From contig CAVYBU010000008.1 of the NCBI GenBank assembly GCA_963766735.1, positions 32,001 to 96,000 on the forward strand: a stretch of 64,000 nucleotides of DNA, in the 5' to 3' direction. Numbering within the stretch: the first letter of the stretch is position 1; every line of letters starts with the position of its first letter. The notes beneath the pieces are model-generated. The model did no database searches, was not told the origin of the DNA, and worked only from the letters and a program-made list of their open reading frames with translations. Shown one piece after another: positions 4,882 through 16,775 of this stretch. A program made the translations under genes and the position numbers. The DNA is from an uncultured Chloroflexia bacterium. Its GTDB lineage: Bacteria > Chloroflexota > Limnocylindria > Limnocylindrales > CSP1-4.

Positions 4882-5151
4882 ATGAACGAGCAGACCCTGC
4901 CTCCCATCGTCGTCCTCGGGCGCGACACCTGTGCCGACACCGTCCGGTCTCGCGCCCTGCTCGCTCAGCGCCGGATCCCGTTCACCTACCTGAAGGTGGA
5001 CGAGGACGCGGCCGCCGATGCGTGGATCCGTCGCCTGAACGACGGCGCGTGGCGCACCCCGACGATCCTCATCGGCGACCCGGACCGGCCCGACCTGATC
5101 CTGCGCGAGCCGTCTGACGAGGAGCTCCTGGCGGCCCTTGGCCTCACCTGA
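4882..5151 (+). CDS. Glutaredoxin/mycoredoxin-like protein with CxxT active site
   Basis: 89 aa thioredoxin-fold pattern: GRDTCADT, cis-Pro motif RTPTI, EPS.EEL. Confidence 0.75.
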   Translation: MNEQTLPPIVVLGRDTCADTVRSRALLAQRRIPFTYLKVDEDAAADAWIRRLNDGAWRTPTILIGDPDRPDLILREPSDEELLAALGLT

Positions 5152-5196
5152 TCGAGGGCAGGACACGCCGCCCACCTTGGCACGGGCGCTCGTCGA

Positions 5197-5703
5197 TCAG
5201 GTTGCCGGCGCCTCGAGACCGAGCACCGTTGCCAGCTCCAGCAACGCGGCCCGTTCCGCGTCGTTGACCATCACGCCGCCGCGGCCGAGGAACCCCTGGT
5301 CCTCCTTGCCGGCCTTCGCCACCACCGTTGCGATCTCGAGCAACCAGGCCCTGTAGGCGGCCGCCTCGTCGGCGGTTGCCCCGGCGTCGGCCACCGCCAC
5401 GGCCGACCGCACGACGCCCAGGGCCCGGTCACGCGCACCGGGCGCCGTCACGACCTTGACGTAGTCCGGAAACGATCCGCCGGAGGCCGCCCTGTCGCTG
5501 AGCGCCGCCAGGATCGACATGATGAGCGGGTGGGAAATCTCGTCACGCGCGCTGTCAAGCACGTGGCTGGCCATCGCGAACCCCTCGCTCGCCGTCTCCT
5601 CCTTGCGGCCGGGGCTCGCCGTCGAGATCAGCACCGCGGCGGCCTCAAGGGCAACCACGAGCAGTCGCTGGTCGTCCGGATCGAAGTCGTCGAGCAGGGT
5701 CAT
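5197..5703 (-). CDS. Conserved hypothetical helical protein (possibly TerB-like)
   Basis: AYRAWLLEIA..VAKAGKE..GFLG.GG..V.DAE.AAL pattern; GGAGG RBS. Confidence 0.65.
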   Translation of the reverse strand: MTLLDDFDPDDQRLLVVALEAAAVLISTASPGRKEETASEGFAMASHVLDSARDEISHPLIMSILAALSDRAASGGSFPDYVKVVTAPGARDRALGVVRSAVAVADAGATADEAAAYRAWLLEIATVVAKAGKEDQGFLGRGGVMVNDAERAALLELATVLGLEAPAT

Positions 5704-5825
5704 GTCACCACCTCCATGCACCGGCGAGTGGAAGCGGTGCATGCAATCGACAATACCGTGCCTCGGCTCCTGGCCCGGGGGGCCAGCGACGAACTGGTGC
5801 CGGGCGTAGAATTCGACCGACGCCC

Positions 5826-6848
5826 GTGTCGATCTCCCCTCCCGCCGAGGAACCGCTCGGCACCCTCGCCCGTCGCAACGACCGCTTCATGGTGGCCGGC
5901 GTGCTCGCGTACGCCGTCCTCGTGGTCTTCCTGATGATCGTCGGCGGCGTTGCGCTCACGCCCGATGTGCTCGCGGTCTCCTTCGGCCTCGTCGCGCTGC
6001 TGCTCGGACGCGGTCGCCTCTTCTTCCGGGACTGGATCCCGTTCATCGTCCTGCTTCTCGCCTACGAGCTCATGCGCGGCATCGCCGACGACGCCGGCCT
6101 GCCGCTCCACGCCGGCGACCTGCTCGTGGCCGAGCGGCTCATCGCGTTCGGCACCGTGCCGACCCAGGTCCTCCAGGACGCGCTCCGCCCGGCGAGCGGC
6201 CCCGATCCGATCGCCCTGGGAGCGACCGTGGTCTACATGCTCCACTTCGTCCTGCCGCTGGCGACGGCCTTCGTCCTCTGGCTCTGGCGGCGCCCGCAGT
6301 TCTACGACTTCGTGGCGTCGCTGATCCTCCTGTCCGTCGCCGGCTTCATCACCTACCTGCTCTTCCCGGCGGCGCCGCCGTGGTACGTCGCCCGCGATGG
6401 CCTCTTGAACGGACCCGATGGGCAGCCCGTCATCGCCTACCTGAAACCGGGAGCCTTCGAGGAGCTGGCCGCGGCGCTGGGCTTCGACGGCCGATATCTC
6501 TATTCCCTGGCTTTCGGAAGCGTGAACCCGAACCCGGTCGCCGCCTTTCCCTCGCTGCACGTGGCCTACCCGGTCCTGACCTTCCTCGTGCTGCGGCGGG
6601 CGTTCGGGCGGATCGGGTGGCTCGCCCTGGGGTACGCGGGGATCGTCGCCTTCTCGGTCGTCTACACGGCCGACCACTGGGTGCTGGATGTCATCGCCGG
6701 CGCGGCCTACGCGTACGTGGCGTACTACGCGGTCCTGCACCTGCCGGACCGGAAGCGAGCGTGGGGTGCCATGGTGCCTCTCGGCCGCCGTCGGTCAGCG
6801 TGGGCGAGTCGCCCGGATCCCGCCCCCGACCAGGATGAGGGGAGCTGA
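5826..6848 (+). CDS. PAP2-family (AUR1/IPC synthase-like) membrane phosphatase/phosphotransferase
   Basis: P.APPWY, AAFPSLH and DHWVLD motifs; multiple TM helices. Confidence 0.85.
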   Translation: MSISPPAEEPLGTLARRNDRFMVAGVLAYAVLVVFLMIVGGVALTPDVLAVSFGLVALLLGRGRLFFRDWIPFIVLLLAYELMRGIADDAGLPLHAGDLLVAERLIAFGTVPTQVLQDALRPASGPDPIALGATVVYMLHFVLPLATAFVLWLWRRPQFYDFVASLILLSVAGFITYLLFPAAPPWYVARDGLLNGPDGQPVIAYLKPGAFEELAAALGFDGRYLYSLAFGSVNPNPVAAFPSLHVAYPVLTFLVLRRAFGRIGWLALGYAGIVAFSVVYTADHWVLDVIAGAAYAYVAYYAVLHLPDRKRAWGAMVPLGRRRSAWASRPDPAPDQDEGS

Positions 6849-6925
6849 CGCGCCGGAGATCCGACAGGATCACCGGGCGGTGAGGCCCTGTCTGCGAGCA
6901 CCCCCGCTCCCGTACGATTGCGGTG

Positions 6926-8390
6926 ATGGCCCTCCCGATTGCCCGCCGGGCGACACGCGTCTCACTCCCGCTCGTGGGTGCGTTCGTCGTGGGCGCGATC
7001 GCCTACGGCGGCCTCTACACGTTCCCTGCCCTGTCGGTTGCGTTCGCGGCGGAGTTCGGGATCAGCCGGACGCTGGCGGTTGCCCCGTGGACGATGTTCC
7101 TGGTGGTGACGGCCATCGCGAGCCCGCTCCTGGGCCGGGCCTACGACGAGTGGGCGGACCGGGACCTCCTGACGGCGTCGATGGTCCTGCTGGCGGCCGG
7201 CTGGCTCGCGGTCTACCTCGCCCAGGAGATCTCGCTCCTCATCCTCGCCTACGCGGTGTTCATGGCGCTGGGCCTCCAGCTCTCGTTCATCGGGACGTCC
7301 ACCGCGATTGCCCGCCGGTACGAGGGGGTGTCCGGGCTCGCCCTGGGGATCGCCTATGCGGGTCCGGGGATCGGGGTGGCGATCGCCCTCCCGGTCGCAG
7401 CCGGCCTGATCGCCACCGCCGGCTGGCGCTCGACATCCCTCGTCTTCCTTGCCACGTGCCTCGTCGGCGTGGTGTTCGTCTGGCTCATGACGAGCGGCCC
7501 GGCCATCGTCGTGCCGACGCGCAGGACGGACAGGCGGCGCACGACGGCCCCCTCCGACGTGATGGGTGCCGCACCACCGGCCGCCCCCACCGTCGCAGGC
7601 CCATCGCACTCGGCCCAGCCGCCCGTCGCTGGCGATCGGGGAGCCCATGAGCGCAGGCCAGCTCGACGTCCGGGAAACCGAGGCGGTGCAGGCCGCCCAC
7701 GCCTTGGGTCTCCACGAGACGTCGGCACCGGGGGCCGTGTCGGCCGCCCGCGAGGTCCTGCCCGTGGGCAGCGGCGAGCACCGCCACGGCATCCGGCGCG
7801 TCGTCCGGACCCGGCGCTTCTGGATCCTGTTCGCAGGCGCGGCCGCGATCGGGATCTTCGACGAGGGCGTCCTCCAGGCATTCATCCCGAGCGCCGTCCA
7901 GAGCGGACTCGGTGCCGGCTGGGCGGCCACCGCGCTCGGGCTCCAGTCGCTCGCCTACGTCGGCGGCCAGATCGTCGGCGGCTGGCTGTCCGACCACGTG
8001 GACCGGCGGATCGTCGGCGTCACCGCGGCGGCGGCCATCGGCGGCGGCGTCGTGGCGGCCCTCGGCGTCGTCGGGTCCGTGCCCACGCTCGCGGTCGCCG
8101 GGATCATCGTTCACGGGATCGGGACCGGGGCGACGATCGCCGTCCGGTCGGCTGCATTCGGGGACGTGTTCGGCGGCCCCAACTTCGGGACGATCTTCGG
8201 CCTGCTCAGCGTCGCCTACCCGATCGGCGGGACGTTCGCGGTCTACTTCGGCGCGATCGCGCTCGATGCGACCGGGTCGTACGCGCCGCTCATCCCGGTG
8301 GTCGTCGCCGCGCTCGTCGTGTGGTCGGTCGCCCTCTGGATCGCGGGTCCGCGGCGGGCCCGCGGGCCGGCACGCGGGTCGCCGGCCTGA
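6926..8390 (+). CDS. MFS transporter; frameshift in the central linker (~7550-7640)
   Basis: N-half 6 TM with GRAYDEWADR in ORF 6923..; C-half 6 TM with GWLSDHVDRR in ORF 7566..8390. Confidence 0.75.
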
Positions 8391-8432
8391 CGGCCCGGCC
8401 CCGATGGGGCTGCGAGCGCTGGGCGGAGCGCG

Positions 8433-11150
8433 TCATCCGGGAACGCGGGCGTCGGCCCGGTCTCTGGCGACACGCGAGGACCGACGGCGCAGGAACCACT
8501 TCTCGATCTCCACGCCGATGAACGCCGCCGGTGACGCCGCGAGCATCACGCCCAACTCGACCGGAGACAGCGCCTCCGTCTCGAAGATTGCCTGGAACGG
8601 CGGCACGTAGATGATCGCAAGCTGGACCACCACGATCGCTGCGACCGCCGCGAGAAGCGGCTTGTTCGTCCGCCAGCCGAGCCGGAAGGTGCTCTCCCGC
8701 TCTGAGCGTACCGCGAGCGCATGCCCGAGCTGGAGGAACGCGAGCGTTGTGAACACCATCGTCTGCCAGTGCCAGCCGACGCTGATCGAGAAGGCCTGGA
8801 TGGCCAGCGTGACCCCGCCCATGAGCAAGCCGACCCACAGCGCGTGCTGCCACAGCCCACGCGCGAAGATCGACTCCGACTGCGGGCGCGGAGGCCGCCG
8901 CATCGTGTCAGGTTCGACCGGCTCGACGCCGAGGGCAAGCGCAGGCGGGCCGTCGGTCACGAGGTTGATCCACAGGATGTGGATCGGCAGCAGCGGTATC
9001 GGGAGGCCGGCGAACGGGGCGAGGAACATCACCCAGATCTCGGCCGAATTGGTCGTCAGCAGGTAGCGGATGAAGCGCCGGATGTTGTCGTAGATTCGGC
9101 GACCTTCCTCGATGGCAGCCACGATCGTCGCGAAGTTGTCATCGGCGAGGACCATGTCGGCCGCTTCCTTGCTGACCTCGGTCCCGGTGATCCCCATTGC
9201 GATACCGATGTCGGCGAGCTTGAGAGCCGGCGCGTCATTGACGCCGTCGCCGGTCATGGCAACGACGGCTCCGCGCGACTTCCAGGCCTTGACGATCCGA
9301 AGCTTCTGCTCGGGGTTGGTCCGTGCGTAGACCGCGACCTCGTCCACGACGCGGTCGAACGCCGCATCGTCCATCTCCTCGAGCTCGGCGCCGGTCATGA
9401 CCTTCGCATCGCCCGCGAGGATGTCCAGCCGACGGGCGATCGCAACGGCGGTCAGGGCATGGTCACCGGTGATCATGATCGGCGTGATTCCCGCGCCACG
9501 AGCGGCCGCGACCGCATCCACGACCTCGGGCCGCGGCGGGTCGGCCATGGCCACGATGCCCAGCAGGGAGAGCCGCTCCTCTGCCAATTCGACCGTGCTC
9601 GGGATTGCGTCGAGGGTCCGCTCGGCGATCGCGAGCACGCGGTAGCCATTGGCCGCGTGCCGCTCGGCAACGTCGCGCGCGCTGGCCCAGATCCCCTCAG
9701 CCTCAGGGCCTGCCAGGGGCGCCAGCGCCTCGACGGCGCCCTTCACGGCAACCCAGATGTGGTCGCCGTCCCGGTGGAGCGTCGACATCCGTCGCCGGCT
9801 GCTGTCGAACGCGACCTCGGCCACGCGAGGGTGGTCCGATTCGAATTCGCCCCGGAACACGCCGAGCTTGCCGGCGAACGCGAGCAAGGCCCCCTCGGTC
9901 GGGTCGCCCGCGAGCGTCCACGGGTCGCCGTGGTGCGCCGGAGCGCGGAGGCTGGCGTCGTTGCAGGCTGCGGCAGCGCGCGCGAGCCGCGGCAGGTAGG
10001 GGTCGGTGGCGGGATCGGTATCGCCCACGATGTCGCCGGCCGGTTCGTAGCCGGAACCCGAGACCTGGTACTCCGCGGCGGGCGTCCAGACCCGCTCCAC
10101 GAGCATGCGGTTCTGGGTGAGGGTGCCCGTCTTGTCCGAGCAGATGACGTTGACCGAACCAAGCGTCTCGACCGCCGGCAGCTTGCGGGCAAGGGCGCGT
10201 CGCCGGGCCATGCGATGGGCGCCCAGGGCGAGGGAGATCGTCACGATAGCCGGGAGTCCCTCCGGGATCGCTGCCACGGCCAGGCTCACGGCCGTGAGGA
10301 ACATCAGCTCGACCAATTCGCCGCGCGCGACGCCGGCGGCGAACACGATGGCGCACACGATCAGGGCGGCCACGCCCAGCCGCTTGCCGAGCGTCGAGAG
10401 CCGGCGCTGGAGGGGCGTCGGGCCGGCGGAGTGTTCCTGGAGCAGATCGGCGATCCGTCCCAGCGCGGTCGCCATCCCGGTCCCGGTGACGATGCCCGTC
10501 CCCCGGCCGTAGGTGACCGCCGTGCCTTTGAAGGCCATGTTCCGCTGGTCGGCCAGCAGCGCGTCCGAGACGTTCGGCAGGGCGGCGACCGTCTTGGAGG
10601 CAGGCTCCGATTCGCCGGTGAGCGCCGCCTCGTTGATGCGCAGCGCGATCGCTTCGATCAACCGCAGATCCGCCGCCACGATGTCACCGGTCTCCAGCCG
10701 CACGACGTCACCGGGCACAAGGTCGCCTGCCGTGATCACGTCGATCTGGCCGTCGCGGAGGACTCGGGCACCGGGACTCGTCATCTGCTTGAGAGCGGCC
10801 ATGGCCCGCTCGGCACGGTACTCCTGGATGAACCCGATGATGCCGTTGAGGAAGACGATCGCCATGATGACGACGGTGTCCTTGAGGTCGCCGATGAGCG
10901 CGGTGACGAGCGCCGCGATCATGAGCACGACGATCATCGTGTTCGTGAACTGCTCCGCGAACAGGCGCCAGGTCGGCTTGCGGTCGCGTTCGATGAGCTC
11001 GTTCGGACCGAAGCGGGCAAGCCGGCTGGCCGCCTCGGCGGCGTCGAGTCCAGTGTCCAGGTTCGACCCCAGCGCCTCTGTCACGAGCGCGGGCTCCTCG
11101 GTCCACGGCCTGAACGGCGTCGCGGCTGCAATGCTCGTCGGAACGGTCAA
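8433..11150 (-). CDS. P-type ATPase, type IIA (Ca2+/Mn2+ exporting)
   Basis: TGES, PEGL, DKTGTLT, KGA, TGD, GDGVND; M5 NSAE, M6 [11 protein letters not shown]. Confidence 0.95.
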
Positions 11151-12178
11151 GTCGATGCCCTCCAGAGCGCGCCGAGCAGGAACACGTACGTCACGAGGAC
11201 GAGGATCGCGTCGGGCTCGAGTCGGCGGATCCGCGTGCGGGTGCCGTGAACCACGGCGGCAAGAGCGATGGCCATCAGCAGGATTGCGCCGACTCCGGCG
11301 ATGACCTGGGAAGGGTCAACCGCGGCCAGGATGGGACCCGGCACATAGGCCACGTCGGCGGCGAACAGGACCGTCACGTTGAAGGCATTGCTGCCGAACA
11401 GGTTGCCGACGGCCAGGTCGTAGGCGCCGATCCGAACGGCGGCGACGGAGGCCACGAGCTCGGGCAGCGACGTAGCCGCCGCGAGCAGGAGTGCGCCGAC
11501 GAAGGTCTGGCCCACGCCCGTCTGATCGGCGATCCCCTTGCCCGACACCGCGAGCAACGGGGCCGCGATCAGGATGATCAGGGCTGCAACGGCGAACCGT
11601 CCGACCTCGTAGCGCAGGCTGTGCCCGGCCTCCCCCTCACGCCCCCAGCCGGTGGGCGCCACAATTTCTGCGGTCGGTCGCGCAGCCGGCGCGCCCTCAC
11701 CGCGGGAGCGATGCATCCAGGTGGCCGCGGCGACATAGGCGACCACGATGAGAACCGTCTCGATCCCTACCCAGCCGATCGCCACGCCGGACGGACTGAG
11801 GATCGCGAGCACGGCGAACGACGTGAGACCGACTGCGATCGCCGCCAGTCGGGCGTGGCCGAGGCCGACGCCGGGCCACACGCGGCCGCGGTGCGCGAGG
11901 TCGATGATCGCGAGGATGGCCATGTTCGCCATGCTGCTCCCGAACAGGTCCCCGACCGCTAGGTCGGGCGCGTTCGCGAGCGCCGCGCTGATGTCCGTTG
12001 CGAGCTCGGGGAGTGAGGTGGCCCCGGCGAGCAACAGCATGCCCACCAGCAACCCGCCGAGACCCGTCCGGGTGGCGATCTCGTCGCCCGCGCGCGCGAG
12101 CAGCGTGCCTGCGCCGACGACGAACACGCCGGACAGCGCGAACAGCGCGACCCACTGCCAGAGAAGGAGAGGCCCCAC
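11147..12178 (-). CDS. Sodium:calcium antiporter (CaCA, YrbG-like)
   Basis: Two alpha repeats ATSLPEL...G(D/N)LFGS..N; about 10 TM helices. Confidence 0.9.
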   Translation of the reverse strand: MGPLLLWQWVALFALSGVFVVGAGTLLARAGDEIATRTGLGGLLVGMLLLAGATSLPELATDISAALANAPDLAVGDLFGSSMANMAILAIIDLAHRGRVWPGVGLGHARLAAIAVGLTSFAVLAILSPSGVAIGWVGIETVLIVVAYVAAATWMHRSRGEGAPAARPTAEIVAPTGWGREGEAGHSLRYEVGRFAVAALIILIAAPLLAVSGKGIADQTGVGQTFVGALLLAAATSLPELVASVAAVRIGAYDLAVGNLFGSNAFNVTVLFAADVAYVPGPILAAVDPSQVIAGVGAILLMAIALAAVVHGTRTRIRRLEPDAILVLVTYVFLLGALWRAST

Positions 12179-13114
12179 TCACTGGTCTCCGTGCGATATC
12201 AGTGGGTGCGGGACGATGAGGACCGAGGTCGGCGCGTACCGGGCGACCTTCTCGGCGAACGGGTCCTGGCCTCGCCGTCGGGGCGGTCGAGCAGCGACGA
12301 TCAGGTCGGGAGCGAGCCGCTCGGCTGCCTGAAGCGTGCCCTCCAGGGGATGACCGAGCTCCATCTCGGTCGTGACCGCGATGGCCTGGCCCCGGAGGCG
12401 CTCTGCGAGCCGATCGAGCGCCGCCATGACATCGGTCCGCAGGAGCCCGGTCACCTCCGTCGCGAGCTCGGGTCGGCCGGTCTCGACACCTGCCGCGACG
12501 CCGAACAGACCGAGAAGCGTCACCTTCGCCGTCCTGACCCAGCCGGCCGCAATCAACCAGTCGATCGCGGACTCCACCGCGAGCGACCCGTCGACGAGGA
12601 CGAGCAAGTGCCCCGGCAGTGATCCCTCGCCATCGGGGGGTCTTCGTGCGACGAGAACGGGTCCGGCCGCCTCGGCGATGATCTGCCGCGAGACGCTGCC
12701 CAGGAGGAGTTGTGCGAGTCCCGACCGGCCGCGGTGCCCCAGCACCAAGAGGTCCGGTCGCTCGGTGGTGACGGCGGCTTCGATCTCGTCGGCCGGATCG
12801 CCCTGGCGCGCCCAGACGTGAACGGTGAGACCGGGGCCCTGGAGACGTTCACCGACTTCGTTGGCGACCCGCTCAGCCGCGAGCAGCTCGCTCTGGCGCA
12901 TCTGTTGGACCGCCTGGCGGACGGCAGTCCGGTACGTCTGCATCCCCCAGCCGAGACGAGTGAGGCCTTCGCCGGCGACGCACAGAACGTCGACGACACA
13001 GGGCCGCGACCAGCGCAGCCGGGCCACCCAGGCCTCGGCACTCCGGGCGGAATCAGAATCGTCGGTCGCAAGCAGGACCCGATAGGCCGTGCTGATCGCC
13101 GTATCCATGGTCAA
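12179..13114 (-). CDS. Tandem universal stress protein
   Basis: VLLATD.S..A, GHRGRSGLAQLLLGSVS, PVLVAR; second domain degenerate. Confidence 0.85.
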   Translation of the reverse strand: MTMDTAISTAYRVLLATDDSDSARSAEAWVARLRWSRPCVVDVLCVAGEGLTRLGWGMQTYRTAVRQAVQQMRQSELLAAERVANEVGERLQGPGLTVHVWARQGDPADEIEAAVTTERPDLLVLGHRGRSGLAQLLLGSVSRQIIAEAAGPVLVARRPPDGEGSLPGHLLVLVDGSLAVESAIDWLIAAGWVRTAKVTLLGLFGVAAGVETGRPELATEVTGLLRTDVMAALDRLAERLRGQAIAVTTEMELGHPLEGTLQAAERLAPDLIVAARPPRRRGQDPFAEKVARYAPTSVLIVPHPLISHGDQ

Positions 13115-14019
13115 CCTCCGATTCTTCGTGCGACGAGGACGCTCGTCGGCGGCTGCGTCACGAGGGCGGCGCTCGTGCTGCCCAGGAAGAATCGCTGGAT
13201 CGCCGAGAGGCCCCGCGAGCCCACGACCAGGAGATCGGCGGACAGCTCGCTGGCGACGACGGCCAGCTGCTCATGTGCTGGGCCACACGCCGTCCGCTGC
13301 GTCGTTGCTGCGCCCCGCTCGCGGAGCCGCCCCGCGGCGACCACGGCCATCGCCTCCGCGGCCTCGCGCGCCCAGCGCAGGCTGTCGGTGTAGGCGGCGT
13401 GGACCTGGCCCACCATCGTCGGCGCCAGTCCGGAGCTCAGCGGCCGAACGACATCGTAGGTGGAGCACACGGTCAGCATCGTCTCCTCGCGGAAGGGCAA
13501 CCTGGCCACGAGCTCGAGTGCCTCGTCCGCGTCGGGGGACGCGTCGTAGCCGAGGAGGACCGAGCGGATCGGGCCTGCAGACCGCGCGACCAGGACCGGG
13601 GTCTGCGCGTACCTGGCGACCTTCCCGGAGACCGTGCCGACGACGTGCGCACGCAGCCCGCCGAGACCCCGGGTGCCGAGGACGATCAGGTCGGACTCAA
13701 CGGCGATGGCACGGGTCACGATCGTCTCGGCCGGGTGACCCTCGGAGATCGTCTCGAACGTCTCGAACCCGGCGGACCGCAGTTGCTCCGCCGCTCCATG
13801 AACGCGTCGCTCCGCCTCGTCCCCGCGGCGCCGCTCCAGCAGTGCGAGTGGAGCCCGTGCGGATCCGGCATCCGGCTCGCCGCCACCCCGGGGGGTCACC
13901 GAAATCACCTCCACGGTGGTCCCGGCAGGCTGGAAGCTCGATACAAGCATCTGCAGGGCCTGTCCCGCCCCGGTCGAGCCATCGGTCGCGAACAGGATGC
14001 GCAAGGCGGCCATCGTCAC
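13111..14019 (-). CDS. Tandem universal stress protein
   Basis: ILFATDGS, GTRGLGG...VGTVS, GSRGLS...LGSTS (G-x2-G-x9-G[ST] in both domains). Confidence 0.9.
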   Translation of the reverse strand: MTMAALRILFATDGSTGAGQALQMLVSSFQPAGTTVEVISVTPRGGGEPDAGSARAPLALLERRRGDEAERRVHGAAEQLRSAGFETFETISEGHPAETIVTRAIAVESDLIVLGTRGLGGLRAHVVGTVSGKVARYAQTPVLVARSAGPIRSVLLGYDASPDADEALELVARLPFREETMLTVCSTYDVVRPLSSGLAPTMVGQVHAAYTDSLRWAREAAEAMAVVAAGRLRERGAATTQRTACGPAHEQLAVVASELSADLLVVGSRGLSAIQRFFLGSTSAALVTQPPTSVLVARRIGG

Positions 14020-14190
14020 GAGCCTCGGAGCTCGTCGTTGCCGGCCCGGTCATCTCCCCGCGAACGAGGTCGAGACCGGACGAGGACAGACCGCGGGCAG
14101 ACAGGAACCCGATGGGATGCGTCGCCCGAGCGACAGGCGATGCCTTCGGGCGGAGTGGTCATGCGGATGTCTCCGACGCGACTCTTCCGT

Positions 14191-14282
14191 CCGAAAGTCT
14201 CCCCGGCTCGCCATCGCGGACCGGCGCCGGCGGGCCATGTGGCCGAGATGTCGCCGGGTGCCTGGCGGGTACTCCCCTTCGG
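14191..14282 (-). ncRNA. yybP-ykoY (Mn2+-sensing) riboswitch aptamer
   Basis: Minus strand reads CCGAAGGGGAGUA...GGCGACAUCUC...GAGACUUUCGG: P1 arms CCGAAGG/CUUUCGG, GGGGAGUA and GAGAC signature nucleotides, CGACAUC loop; upstream of a P2A ATPase/CaCA operon. Confidence 0.85.
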
Positions 14283-14290
14283 TACTGACC

Positions 14291-14319
14291 AGATTATCGG
14301 GACTCTTGTGTCATGTCAA
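14291..14319 (-). promoter_or_regulatory. Sigma70-type promoter TTGACA-N17-TAATCT for the riboswitch/USP operon, overlapped by inverted repeat TCTTGT-N9-ACAAGA (14304-14324)
   Basis: Consensus -35, 17-nt spacer, TAnnnT -10 ending about 8 nt before the aptamer. Confidence 0.7.
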
Positions 14320-14372
14320 CAAGATCTGTACGCTGGGTGGATCCACTGGATTCATGGCTGCGAGGTAGATAG

Positions 14373-14699
14373 ATGGAGGAATTGGAAGACCACGCGGACG
14401 GCTCGTGGACCTTCCTCACGAACCATGCTCACGTTCTGGTCTGTCTGAGCATCGATCCGACGCTCCGCGTGCGGGACCTGGCGGATCGAGTCGGCATCAC
14501 CGAGCGCGCCGCGCATCGGATCCTGACCGGGCTGGCCCGAGCCGGATACCTGGCGAAGGAGCGTCAGGGTCGACGCACTCGATATCGCCTGAACCTCGAC
14601 CACCCGATGCGCCACCCGCTCGAGCGGTCGAGGCCCGTGGGCGCGCTCCTCGAAGCGCTGGCTATTGTGGACAAGGCAGGGGAGGGTCCTCCGGGGTGA
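14373..14699 (+). CDS. Small winged-helix (ArsR/MarR-like) transcriptional regulator
   Basis: WTFLTNHAHVL, VRDLADRVGITERAAHRIL, R.GRR.RY, MRHPLE. Confidence 0.85.
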   Translation: MEELEDHADGSWTFLTNHAHVLVCLSIDPTLRVRDLADRVGITERAAHRILTGLARAGYLAKERQGRRTRYRLNLDHPMRHPLERSRPVGALLEALAIVDKAGEGPPG

Positions 14700-14848
14700 C
14701 CCCAAGAGGCGACCGATCGCCGCCGGTCCGAGAGCGCAGTTCCGACGGCCGAGACCGTGCCATCCAGCGACACATCCGGAGCGCGACGAGTGGGTATGCT
14801 GGGGATCCCAAGAGGCGATCGCCTCGACACACCGGACTGAGGCAGGAC

Positions 14849-16747
14849 ATGTCGAGCGAGTTCACCGGCCGAATCCTTCACGTGAACCTCACAACCGGGT
14901 CGATTGAGATCGAGACCCCGCCCGAGTCGTTCTATCGGACGTATCTCGGCGGCTCCGCGATGGGCCTGTATTACATCCTGCGTGACGTGCCCGCCGGGAC
15001 GGATGGCCTGGATCCGGCCAACGTCCTGACGATGATGGACAGCGTGCTTACCGGGGCGCCCATCGCCGGCCAGAGCCGGATGACGATCAGCGCCCGCTCC
15101 CCCCTCACGGACGGCATCGGCGACAGCCAGGGCGGTGGCTTCTTCCCGGCCGAGCTGCGGTTCGCGGGGTTCACGGGGATCGTGATCAAGGGGCGGTCTC
15201 CGGAGCCCGTGTACCTGTGGGTCCACGACGGCGAGGCCGAGCTGCGACCGGCCGGTCACCTGTGGGGAACGACGACGTCGCAGGTGACCGACTCCTCAAG
15301 GCAGAGCTCGACGACGCCAAGGATCGAGGTCGCCGCGATCGGTCCGGCCGGCGAGAAGGTCGTCCCGCCTGGCCGCGATCATGAGCATGGGCAACCGGGC
15401 CAACGGCCGGACGGGCATGGGTGCCGTGATGGGGTCCAAGAACCTCAAGGCGGTGGCCGTCCGCGGCCACGACACGCAAGGTCCCGATGGCGGACACCGC
15501 GGCGTTCGGCAGGCTCGCGAAGTGGGGCGCCAAGGAGATCCCGAACAACGGCGACGTGCTCGACCTCCGGATCAACGGGACCGAGGGTGTCCTCGAGGGG
15601 CAGCACGCCGCGGGCGGCCTGCCGACCTTCAACTACGGCGCCGGCCAGTTCGAGGGCAACGAGGCCATCGGTGGCGCGACGATGACGGCGACGATCCTCA
15701 AGAACCGGGAGACCTGCTACTCGTGTGCCGTGCGCTGCAAGCGGGCGGTCGAGACGGAGTGGGAGGGACGTCCGGTCGAGGAGCGGCACGGCGGCCCGGA
15801 GTACGAGACGGCCGCCGTCTTCGGTTCCTACTGCGGCGTCGACGACCTCCATGCCATCTCGCTGGCCAACAAGATCTGCAACGAGAACGGTCTCGACACC
15901 ATCGGGACGGGGGCGACCATCGCCTGGGTGATGGACTGCTTCACCCACGGGGTGCTGTCGGAGGCCGAGATCGGCTTTCCTGCGCCGTTCGGGGACGCGA
16001 AGGCCATGATCCGCCTTCTGGAGATGGTCGTGGACCGGGAGGGCATCGGCGACATCCTCGCCAATGGTTCCCGGCGCGCCGCGGGCCTGCTGGGCAAGGG
16101 TGATGACCTCCTGATCACGGTCAAGGGCGCCGAGGCGCCCGCCCACATGCCGCAGGCGAAGCGGTCCCTGGGCGTGATCTACGCCGTGAACCCGTTCGGT
16201 GCCGACCACCAGTCGTCCGAGCACGACGGCAGCATCGAGGAGGGTGCCTCTGACCTCGCGATGGAGCGGCAGGCACTGCTCGGCTTCACGGAGACGGTCC
16301 CGTACGACTCGCTGGGAGCGGAGAAGGTCCGCTACGCGCTCAAGACGCAGCAGCTCTACTCGTTCCTGGACACCGCCGACCTGTGCCAGTTCGTGTGGGG
16401 GCCCGCGTGGTCCCTGTTCGGGCCCCAGGATGCCATCGACACCGTGAAGGCCGTGACCGGCTGGACGGACTTCGACGTGGACGAGCTGATCGAGATCGGC
16501 GAGCGGCGGCTGAACATGCTCCGAGCGTTCAACGCCCGCGAGGGCATCGACCGCAAGGACGACCGGCTGTCCGGCCAAGTTCTTCAGGCCGCTGACCGGG
16601 ACCGGCCCCACCAGGGCGTGGCACTCGATCCCGGCGGTGATCGAGGGGGCCCTGGACGAGTACTACCGTCTCGCAGGCTGGGACGGCCAGACCGGCAACC
16701 CGACGCCCGAGACGCTGGCACGGCTGGGGCTCGACTGGGTCTCGTAG
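14849..16747 (+). CDS. aor: Tungsten-dependent aldehyde:ferredoxin oxidoreductase family, copy 1; multiple frameshifts (~15290-15480, ~16570-16650)
   Basis: GRILHVNL, YLGG, SPLT, GG.FPAELRFAG, GRTGMGAVMGSKNLKA, CYSCAVRC, GPEYET, GLDTI, FNAREG spread over adjacent frames. Confidence 0.85.
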
Positions 16748-16775
16748 CCCAGGACGGGCGGTCCACCCGGTGATC

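Follow-up and report, generated by a model that had tools for sequence, protein, structure and literature searches.

A predicted P2-less yybP-ykoY-type riboswitch and a leader open reading frame at the head of a stress protein and cation transporter operon in uncultured Chloroflexota

The locus described here raises the question of how a leader RNA that resembles a Mn2+ riboswitch would control a set of genes encoding two universal stress proteins (USPs) and two different cation transporters. It resides in a stretch of 64,000 nucleotides from an uncultured Chloroflexia bacterium (contig CAVYBU010000008.1 of assembly GCA_963766735.1, positions 32,001–96,000), which we refer to as the window and in whose coordinates all operon elements, located on its minus strand, are specified. 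The host genome is 3.6 Mb in size and is, like the related assemblies used for comparison, a metagenome-assembled genome (MAG). Sequence reading and Pfam matches define the order of the elements as a promoter-like hexamer, an aptamer, a leader open reading frame (ORF), USP1, USP2, a CaCA antiporter and a P-type ATPase. A first-pass annotation, made from the sequence alone, had proposed a yybP-ykoY-type aptamer heading a USP-USP-CaCA-P2A ATPase operon, and this assignment is borne out by an independent covariance model, which detects the window copy with 63.7 bits and also finds the alx and mntP riboswitches of E. coli. The same annotation had taken the USPs as the first cistrons under the switch, a place that is instead occupied by a leader ORF of 48 codons. 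Taken as a whole, a Mn2+-type riboswitch without helix P2, which acts through a leader-ORF relay on an output of USPs, CaCA antiporter and ATPase, is the reading that we favour and consider probable.

The aptamer preceding the operon

The RNA motifs listed in the first-pass annotation are all present, with CCGAAGGGGAGUA starting at 14282, GCGACAUCUC at 14254–14245 and GGGGAGACUUUCGG ending at 14191, and they are part of the following predicted elements:

14283–14189, minus strand: P2-less (three-way-junction) yybP-ykoY-type aptamer, matched by the covariance model R1 with 63.7 bits (E 4.3e-12)
14282–14276 paired with 14197–14191, minus strand: helix P1.1
14275–14270, minus strand: loop L1 (GGAGUA)
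CCC at 14269–14267 paired with GGG at about 14203–14201, minus strand: helix P1.2
14257–14227, minus strand: helix P3 with the loop ACAUCUC and an inner hairpin
14226–14202, minus strand: P4 hairpin

R1 was derived from 22 TerC-linked copies, the window not being among them, and its alignment comprises P1.1, P1.2, a P3 leg with a GUCAU loop and an inner hairpin, and P4, with no counterpart of P2. In these 22 copies, 93.4% of the cells are paired compared to at most 47.6% if the partners are slid, and compensatory changes are found at 13 of the 26 pairs, with none of 500 shuffles reaching the observed values. The match of R1 in the window is well separated from the next best (15.6 bits), the E-values being rough due to a shortened calibration, and the only other match in the entire genome is a site on contig 9 with 52.9 bits. 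When applied to experimentally validated members of the family, R1 recognizes the E. coli alx leader with 31.0 bits (next best 7.8), aligning it over its full length including the same CGUCAU motif of L3, and the mntP leader with 23.8 bits (next best 7.3).

The window copy displays the signature sequences on both sides of the junction. The 5' strand of L1, GGGGAGUA(G), is located next to P1.1 within CCGAAGG-GGAGUA at 14282–14270, where it aligns to columns that are invariant in the relatives, and on the opposite side (G)AGAC is followed by the 3' strand of P1.1 in GGGGAGAC-UUUCGG at 14204–14191. In L3, the internal loop of the P3 leg that in this family holds the conserved adenosine contacting the metal, the window contains GCGACAUCUC where its relatives, alx and the Rfam consensus carry CGUCAU or GUCAACAU, with the CA being kept and the preceding U replaced by A. 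The stretch from GGGGAGUA to AGAC spans 71 nt in the window compared to about 87 nt in the four-way-junction copies of the class, a difference that equals the size of a P2 hairpin, and the P2 helix of the four-way junction is absent, with R1, itself devoid of P2, fitting the window over its full length. P2 does not define the family, as it is lacking in the alx (PMC12153347) and mgtA (PMC6649816) riboswitches. A fold of the single window sequence recovers P1, P3 and P4. Covariation in the 22 TerC-linked relatives extends to P1.1, P1.2, P3 and P4, and these helices are paired in 92.0% of the cells in 10 ATPase-linked relatives, whose alignment was fitted to the model, while the window's own clade of three close copies contributes little covariation. 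Judged from sequence and conserved pairing, we regard the leader as a genuine yybP-ykoY-type riboswitch aptamer in its known P2-less three-way-junction form.

This assignment has to be reconciled with the result of the check that the first-pass annotation had suggested, an Infernal search with the Rfam family model, which taken at face value contradicts it. At its gathering threshold of 45 bits RF00080 does not match the window, and it yields no hit in the 501-base leader at E<=10 or in the whole host genome. We judge that RF00080 fails to detect P2-less aptamers and that this outcome is a false negative, because the model (Rfam release 15) when run on E. coli K-12 also does not report the validated alx riboswitch (L145:2374–2502) at E<=10 and assigns 41.6 bits, less than its own gathering score, to the validated mntP leader (L146:2462–2575). 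In a sample of the class, full-length RF00080 matches were obtained in 4 of 151 genomes with scores of 21–42 bits, all below the cut-off. Three of these (L010, L011 and L012) are complete four-way-junction aptamers located before CaCA and TerC genes, whose 5' and 3' ends resemble those of the window copy; the fourth (L013, 21 bits) was regarded as doubtful and left out. The structure line of RF00080 contains no P1 pairs, with the 5' stretch marked as unpaired and alignments stopping at the P4 hairpin.

The distribution of the motifs is informative irrespective of any covariance model. The two-motif pattern AGGGGAGTA-N55-95-AGACYTTC, scanned in 401 genomes of the class, occurs at 39 sites in 34 genomes compared to 2 sites for the reversed pattern used as control, one of the 39 being a second site in the host genome, and the combination of motifs is far beyond chance. 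The pattern of the window's subtype (type C, GGGGAGTAYCC...GAGACYTTC), scanned in 401 genomes of the family, is found at 49 sites in 46 genomes and not at all for the control. Two of these 46 genomes were not used further. Leaving aside the window and its closest relative, 31 distinct sites were kept, which precede TerC genes in 22 cases, CaCA genes in 3, tandem USPs in 2 and a zinc-ribbon ORF in 1, with 3 being unclassified or spurious. At one of the two USP-type sites (L050), the genes run on into a P-type ATPase. L056 turned out to be a false positive of the pattern without P1 pairing or family, and L064, located at a contig end, and L070, where the one ORF run against Pfam had no hit, were left unclassified. 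Aptamers of other subtypes precede GDT1, CaCA and P-type ATPase genes. TerC and GDT1 are classic Mn2+ exporter families, and the aptamer-linked families overall are exporters of Mn2+ and Ca2+.

Matches of R1 are found in 7 of the 151 sampled genomes, including other families of the phylum, where the aptamers precede genes for TerC, CaCA, an OmpR-type response regulator and, as a weak case, a CitMHS transporter. A search on the DNA level with the leader in 60 relatives recovered only two true homologues, and six further matches were dropped as short and GC-rich.

Several individual sites deserve mention in their own right. The second aptamer of the host genome (L075:1501–1597, minus strand, corresponding to G000:C9:22522–22618) belongs to a 'type A' with the sequence GGGGAGUAGUCCUCCUCCGG..AUCGACAUGCUGGCGC, scores 52.9 bits with R1 and has no RF00080 match; it precedes a GDT1/UPF0016 gene (L075:854–1483, minus strand), as do the type A copies of relatives. 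In genome G825 from another Chloroflexota family, an aptamer at L151:1501–1593 (plus strand, R1 52.1 bits) is followed at +79 by the OmpR-type response regulator, an unusual target for riboswitches of this class. Small ORFs are found behind the aptamer at L031:1713–2081 (plus strand), where Pfam identifies a Zn_ribbon_TFIIB domain, and at L089:5501–6000 (plus strand), where the product is cysteine-rich. The TerC protein behind the four-way-junction aptamer of L012 carries the zinc-ribbon domain seen in L031 as a C-terminal fusion.

Could the motifs be a chance resemblance in what is an ordinary long 5' untranslated region? Such a view would account for the missing RF00080 match and for the folding energies, as the aptamer fold is not unusually stable (z = –0.69, and –0.86 for the whole leader). 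It is at odds with the 63.7 bits obtained with an independently built model that also finds alx and mntP, with the counts of the pattern census (39 versus 2 and 49 versus 0), with the covariation of the helices and with the consistent context of exporter genes, and we consider it very improbable. The absent RF00080 match, mitigated by the behaviour of that model towards alx and mntP, and the unremarkable stability nevertheless weigh against the reading that we favour, as do two properties of the window copy itself: its L3 is GACAU in contrast to the GUCAU of most relatives, and the R1 alignment of its P4 contains several non-standard pairs, with the P4 hairpin forming only in a shifted register.

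The leader ORF as a predicted relay

In the TerC-linked copies, the complement GCCGGAGG of the 3' strand of P1, CCUUCGGC, is located no more than about 10 nt behind it, with TerC starting at about +17 to +35, which would represent the standard arrangement of an ON switch that sequesters the Shine-Dalgarno (SD) sequence. The SD sequence and the start codon found at the equivalent place in the window belong to the leader ORF:

14174–14171, minus strand: Shine-Dalgarno sequence GGAG, 8 nt before the AUG of the leader ORF
14162–14016, minus strand: leader ORF of 48 codons plus stop, with AUG at 14162–14160 and UGA at 14018–14016
14204–14135, minus strand: predicted OFF-state sequestor hairpin, formed by the 3' strand of P1.1 (CUUUCGG) and a second CCGAAGG, with SD sequence and AUG enclosed

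The AUG of the leader ORF is located 26 nt after the aptamer and its UGA 2 nt before the AUG of USP1 (UGAcgAUG), and the region thus shows the features of an upstream ORF (uORF), with SD sequence and AUG (GGAG-N8-AUG) under the aptamer and a stop at the start of the next gene. The gap of about 170 nt between aptamer and USP1 contains the SD sequence, the AUG and the 48-codon ORF, and the genes do not follow directly behind the RNA. Codons 4–9 hold CUCCG and a second exact copy of CCGAAGG, which allows the prediction of a hairpin with a folding energy of –33.9 kcal/mol (z = –3.65) whose stability is reached by none of 200 shuffled sequences. The first approximately 45 nt of the leader ORF are nearly invariant in three close relatives, as would be explained by their place inside the predicted OFF hairpin, and the remainder diverges with insertions and deletions.

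To define how far this arrangement extends, we surveyed 12 distinct aptamer-linked sequences, consisting of the window and 11 loci, with L050 and L051 duplicating the aptamer and downstream region of L110 and L086, respectively. Nine of the twelve share the geometry, with an ORF whose start codon, preceded by a GGAGG, is found at +21 to +28 nt from the aptamer and which ends either in an AUGA overlap or in a UGAcgAUG abutment with the start of the next gene. The lengths of these nine leaders are 48, 48, 58, 96, 149, 62, 51, 64 and 40 codons, and the gene that follows encodes a USP, CaCA (L085), a small ORF (L089) or the ATPase itself (L076). In L082, the equivalent start codon directly opens a USP, and L110/L050, without a clear assignment of a leader ORF, are outside the nine. 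The leader peptides are not conserved, and it is the stop/start geometry alone that is kept. By shuffling, the chance of an open frame is 0.05–0.53 per locus, and for seven distinct leaders, including a factor of 1/3 for the frame, the combined probability would be about 1e-7 if the loci were independent, which is only partially the case.

On the basis of these features, the leader most likely functions as a translational ON switch that responds to Mn2+ and exerts its control via the leader ORF, and we infer for this switch the following ligand, direction of switching and mode of translation. In the metal-free state, the 3' strand of P1.1 would pair with the second copy of the P1.1 5' strand in the leader ORF, and the resulting long hairpin would bury SD sequence and AUG to keep expression off. 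Binding of the metal between L1 and L3 would stabilize P1.1 and open the hairpin, allowing ribosomes to start on the 48-codon leader ORF. Ribosomes terminating at its UGA would reinitiate at the AUG of USP1 2 nt further on, and translation would then pass via overlapping or abutting junctions to USP2, CaCA and the PMR1/SPCA-like ATPase, to provide an efflux of Mn2+, possibly also of Ca2+, together with two nucleotide-binding stress proteins.

The riboswitch could also be real and its leader ORF still not act as relay, in case that Rho-dependent termination or mRNA decay sets in within the spacer of about 170 nt when the leader is untranslated, or that USP1 starts independently. A contribution of Rho has precedent, as it acts together with the mntP riboswitch of E. 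coli (PMC11647493), in a report whose available text does not contain uORF or related terms, and Rho is commonly assumed to support translational riboswitches in bacteria with few terminators (PMC11260477); our scan identified no terminator-like site after the aptamer. On the other hand, the RNA of the leader ORFs has no marked excess of C over G (G 28–36%, C 33–41%), a Rho loading site in the leader thus not being specifically supported by base composition, and no obvious SD sequence is seen before the AUG of USP1 that would promote its independent start. What separates the two mechanisms, which are not mutually exclusive, is the stop/start geometry that is kept across leaders of differing length and sequence and that control by Rho alone would not need. 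We thus consider an arrangement without relay unlikely, although it is the strongest competitor to the leader-ORF relay that we favour. On the side of doubt it has to be added that DNA of high GC content holds frames open by chance, that the related loci are kin and not independent, and that the assemblies are MAGs, with two genes in the neighbourhood of the operon that seem to be split between frames. Owing to this last point, individual frames have to be taken with care, and the leader-ORF pattern rests on several genomes.

Transporters, stress proteins and the nature of the ligand

Downstream of the leader ORF, the operon consists of four genes:

14013–13111, minus strand: USP1, a tandem universal stress protein of 300 residues (Pfam Usp in two stretches, E 4e-41)
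13108–12179, minus strand: USP2, a tandem universal stress protein (Pfam Usp in two stretches, E 6e-32)
12178–11147, minus strand: CaCA-family (Na_Ca_ex) antiporter of 343 residues (Pfam PF01699 in two stretches, E 1.6e-34)
11150–8433, minus strand: P2A-type, PMR1/SPCA-like cation ATPase of 905 residues with four Pfam domains

The tight coupling of these genes described in the first-pass annotation is confirmed, with all junctions either overlapping or abutting. The ATG of USP2 at 13108 is preceded by GGAGG, with an alternative TTG at 13114 overlapping the stop of USP1, the stop of USP2 is directly followed by the GTG of CaCA, and the TTG start of the ATPase overlaps the CaCA stop (TTGA).

The pump contains the core motifs DKTGT and PEGL of P-type ATPases and is matched by the Pfam families Cation_ATPase_N, E1-E2_ATPase, Hydrolase and Cation_ATPase_C. 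Its assignment as PMR1/SPCA-like is supported by human SPCA1 as closest relative of known structure (2.6e-189), followed by Listeria LMCA1, and by the PMR1-type model TIGR01522, which with 760.3 bits remains below its cut-off of 798.3 but is still the best NCBIfam model (SERCA type 640). As annotated, the window pump carries the sequence DGPPA in M6, which is present in 8 of 31 aligned pumps and is not a feature of the clade. The idea that a histidine in M6 takes the place of the selectivity-determining glutamine did not withstand alignment. His724 corresponds to position 733 of SPCA1 (index 733 of 8iwp_A) and not to Q747, whose equivalent is a leucine in the window, and we have thus rejected it as counterpart of the selectivity glutamine of SPCA1 and PMR1. 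This first position of M6 is occupied by His in 19 of the 31 pumps, including the window and all 10 aptamer-bearing loci, and by Gln in the 12 most distant ones. Substitutions at Q747 of SPCA1 are described to alter Mn2+ transport (PMC9984183).

Among the other gene products, the CaCA protein scores 109 bits with the YrbG-type model TIGR00367, below the cut-off of 180. Nucleotide-binding USPs share the motif G-2x-G-9x-G(S/T). USP1 carries it in each of its two domains, USP2 only in its first. Orthologues of USP1 were found in 9 related loci with identities of 51–89%.

A recurrence of USPs with the pump in relatives, on which the first-pass annotation had made its proposal depend, is seen in a neighbourhood survey of 69 loci that encode relatives of the pump with identities of 54–94%. 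In 7 of these loci, the upstream sequence is shorter than about 1 kb, too little for a judgement. These relatives originate from Chloroflexota MAGs, several being labelled Candidatus Limnocylindrales. An R1 aptamer (64.8–77.1 bits) is located upstream of the pump on the same strand in 10 of the 69 loci. The genes in between differ, with USP-USP-CaCA in L078–L081, three USPs and CaCA in L082, two USPs in L086, one USP in L110, CaCA alone in L085 and no gene detectable by tblastn in L076 and L089, the former with a USP gene that begins 4 nt after the stop of the pump. In total, 8 of the 10 aptamer-bearing operons contain USP genes and 6 contain CaCA. Of all 69 loci, 25 have CaCA immediately before the pump and 14 a USP upstream on the same strand. 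The operon is modular. A USP2-like gene is positioned directly upstream of CaCA in all 10 loci that have one, and a USP1-like gene directly before the pump where CaCA is absent (L077, L086 and L110). In L081 (4974–6001, plus strand), CaCA appears as two adjoining tblastn pieces (4974–5384 and 5384–6001), which suggests a frameshift or an assembly error in an otherwise complete operon.

In the first-pass annotation, the USPs were suggested to regulate or accompany the pumps. The conserved placement of USP2 before CaCA, and of USP1 before the ATPase when CaCA is absent, fits a scheme in which USP1 would be the partner of the PMR1-like pump and USP2 the partner of CaCA, both metal-induced and nucleotide-sensing, and tying efflux to the ATP or cyclic-nucleotide state of the cell, with the cassette of aptamer and leader ORF constituting a portable unit that puts new operons under Mn2+ control by translational relay. 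We offer this scheme as speculation with a low probability of being correct. A search for fusions of pump and USP found no Usp domain in five long ATPase ORFs, and an apparent ORF of 1127 residues in L109 is an artefact of frame and not such a fusion. Equally, a search of longer proteins with USP1 returned four matches of multi-USP, CBS+USP and TauE+USP composition and no fusion to a pump, which is weak evidence.

The properties of the transporters lead back to the identity of the ligand, the assignment of which is not secure since the three-way-junction aptamer of mgtA binds Ca2+ about 50-fold tighter than Mn2+ in vitro (PMC6649816), a further point to be held against our interpretation. The same aptamer could have Ca2+, or Ca2+ together with Mn2+, as physiological ligand, in which case the operon would primarily be a module for calcium efflux. 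Both transporters, as PMR1-type Ca2+ ATPase and Ca2+/Na+ antiporter, belong to families named after calcium, the pump has a close relative of known structure in Listeria LMCA1, and the L3 of the window, GACAU, deviates from the GUCAU of the majority, all of which is compatible with this possibility. Conversely, in cells it is Mn2+ and not Ca2+ that drives read-through and induction of mgtA (PMC6649816), the aptamer family mostly controls TerC and GDT1 genes, and R1 recognizes two validated Mn2+ switches. We thus regard Ca2+ as a serious alternative or co-ligand, while considering an operon that is mainly devoted to calcium to be distinctly improbable, and retain Mn2+ as the likely signal.

The region upstream of the aptamer contains the following candidate promoter elements:

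14319–14314, minus strand: –35-like hexamer TTGACA, read in the sequence and invariant in three close relatives
14298–14291, minus strand: –10 candidates, either GATAAT at 14298–14293 (15-nt spacer) or TAATCT at 14296–14291 (17-nt spacer)

Of the sigma70 promoter that had been proposed, the –35-like hexamer recurs. Among the aptamers examined, 9 of 11 of the ATPase type and 8 of 12 of the TerC type have TTGAC(A/G) at a similar distance on their 5' side. The –10 element TAATCT matches TATAAT at only three of six positions, with GATAAT as the alternative, and a promoter scan of the region reported no site. With either –10 candidate, the transcript would start within few bases of the first helix of the aptamer. 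The –35 hexamer is overlapped by an inverted repeat (TCTTGT-N9-ACAAGA, 14304–14324, minus strand), and in L079 and L086 it lies inside near-perfect palindromes (TTGACATGTGTCAA and CTTGACGGCTGTCAAG, respectively). A divergent ORF (14373–14699, plus strand) starts 54 nt upstream of the hexamer and encodes a winged-helix protein of 108 residues that matches MarR_2 with 27.6 bits, just at the cut-off. Inverted repeat and winged-helix ORF may point to an operator for a protein regulator alongside the riboswitch.

Outside the operon, an aldehyde:ferredoxin oxidoreductase gene (about 14867–16773, plus strand) seems to be split over two frames, with AFOR_N in the frame of the ORF 14405–15685 and AFOR_C in the ORF 15487–16773 (plus strand), due to either a frameshift or an indel in the assembly. 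On the opposite side, an MFS transporter gene (6923–8521, plus strand) is convergent with the ATPase, and its MFS_1 halves reside in different frames (6923–8521 and 7566–8390), again with a possible indel.

Precedents and implications

The designation as undescribed system in the first-pass annotation is too strong, since four precedents (PMC6649816, PMC12153347, PMC11260477 and PMC3177182) each cover one of its elements. For the aptamer, a resemblance to alx is evident from R1, which aligns the alx leader over its full length with 31.0 bits. The relatives of the window aptamer mostly precede TerC, and Alx itself we take to be a TerC-family protein. Like the window copy, alx lacks P2, carries GGGGAGUA in L1, a CGUCAU-type L3 and GAGACCUU as 3' strand, and its control is translational with P1.1 as switch helix (PMC12153347), as we propose for the window. 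In the same report alx-like switches are said to be exclusive to Enterobacteriales (PMC12153347), whereas the window copy resides in Chloroflexota MAGs. The alx switch, which shows pH dependence and an internal termination site in P4, precedes the Mn2+ exporter Alx, whereas the window copy is followed by a leader ORF and the USP/CaCA/ATPase operon.

A second precedent is provided by mgtA of S. pneumoniae, where a three-way-junction yybP-ykoY aptamer serves as Mn2+ ON switch for an SPCA-like PII-type Mn2+/Ca2+ ATPase (PMC6649816), in line with SPCA1 and LMCA1 being closest to the window pump. In mgtA, control is exerted by transcriptional read-through at a terminator, whereas the expression platform of the window would act by sequestration of SD sequence and AUG via the leader ORF, and the mgtA operon includes a glutathione S-transferase in place of USPs and CaCA.

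The closest precedent for the leader ORF is the B12 riboswitch of ppe2 in M. tuberculosis, which masks the SD sequence of a uORF and where expression of the downstream gene requires translation of the uORF and a tight stop/start overlap, an AUGA that supports termination-reinitiation (PMC11260477). It differs from the window in belonging to another riboswitch class and phylum, in responding to a different ligand and in being an OFF switch. Its stop and start overlap, whereas they are separated by 2 nt in the window (UGAcgAUG), and AUGA overlaps are found in the window's relatives.

A fourth precedent concerns the pairing of stress protein and pump in Rv1996 and Rv1997/ctpF of M. tuberculosis, which presumably encode a tandem USP and a P2-type pump. 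The genes of this USP and cation P-type ATPase adjoin each other and are both part of the DevR regulon (PMC3177182). Their control is exerted by a protein regulator and proceeds from separate promoters, compared to a riboswitch and a single operon in the window, and a functional link between both proteins is likewise not established.

Each element of the system thus has a precedent. What is new is that these elements are combined, that a riboswitch of this class would be relayed through a leader ORF and that USPs recur as its cargo. In the literature searched, outside of which most subscription journals remain, no Mn2+ riboswitch was found that acts via a leader ORF or controls USP genes. The architecture is of a known kind in a new lineage, the uncultured Chloroflexota, since the P2-less three-way-junction form has been published for alx and mgtA.

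The finding bears on the annotation and the biology of this lineage in several ways. An entire clade of P2-less aptamers in uncultured Chloroflexota escapes the Rfam Mn2+ model, as does the validated alx, and metal-homeostasis regulons in such lineages are consequently under-annotated; alignment and model of R1 could seed a better Rfam-type family. The presence of an alx-like architecture in a distant phylum, again mostly located before TerC, bears on the age of that pairing. An aptamer of the Mn2+ type followed by a leader ORF that is not conserved except for the site of its stop suggests a simple route by which a translational riboswitch could be transplanted before any operon. Finally, the repeated occurrence of USPs in metal-induced pump operons provides a concrete and testable setting for a family of largely unknown function.

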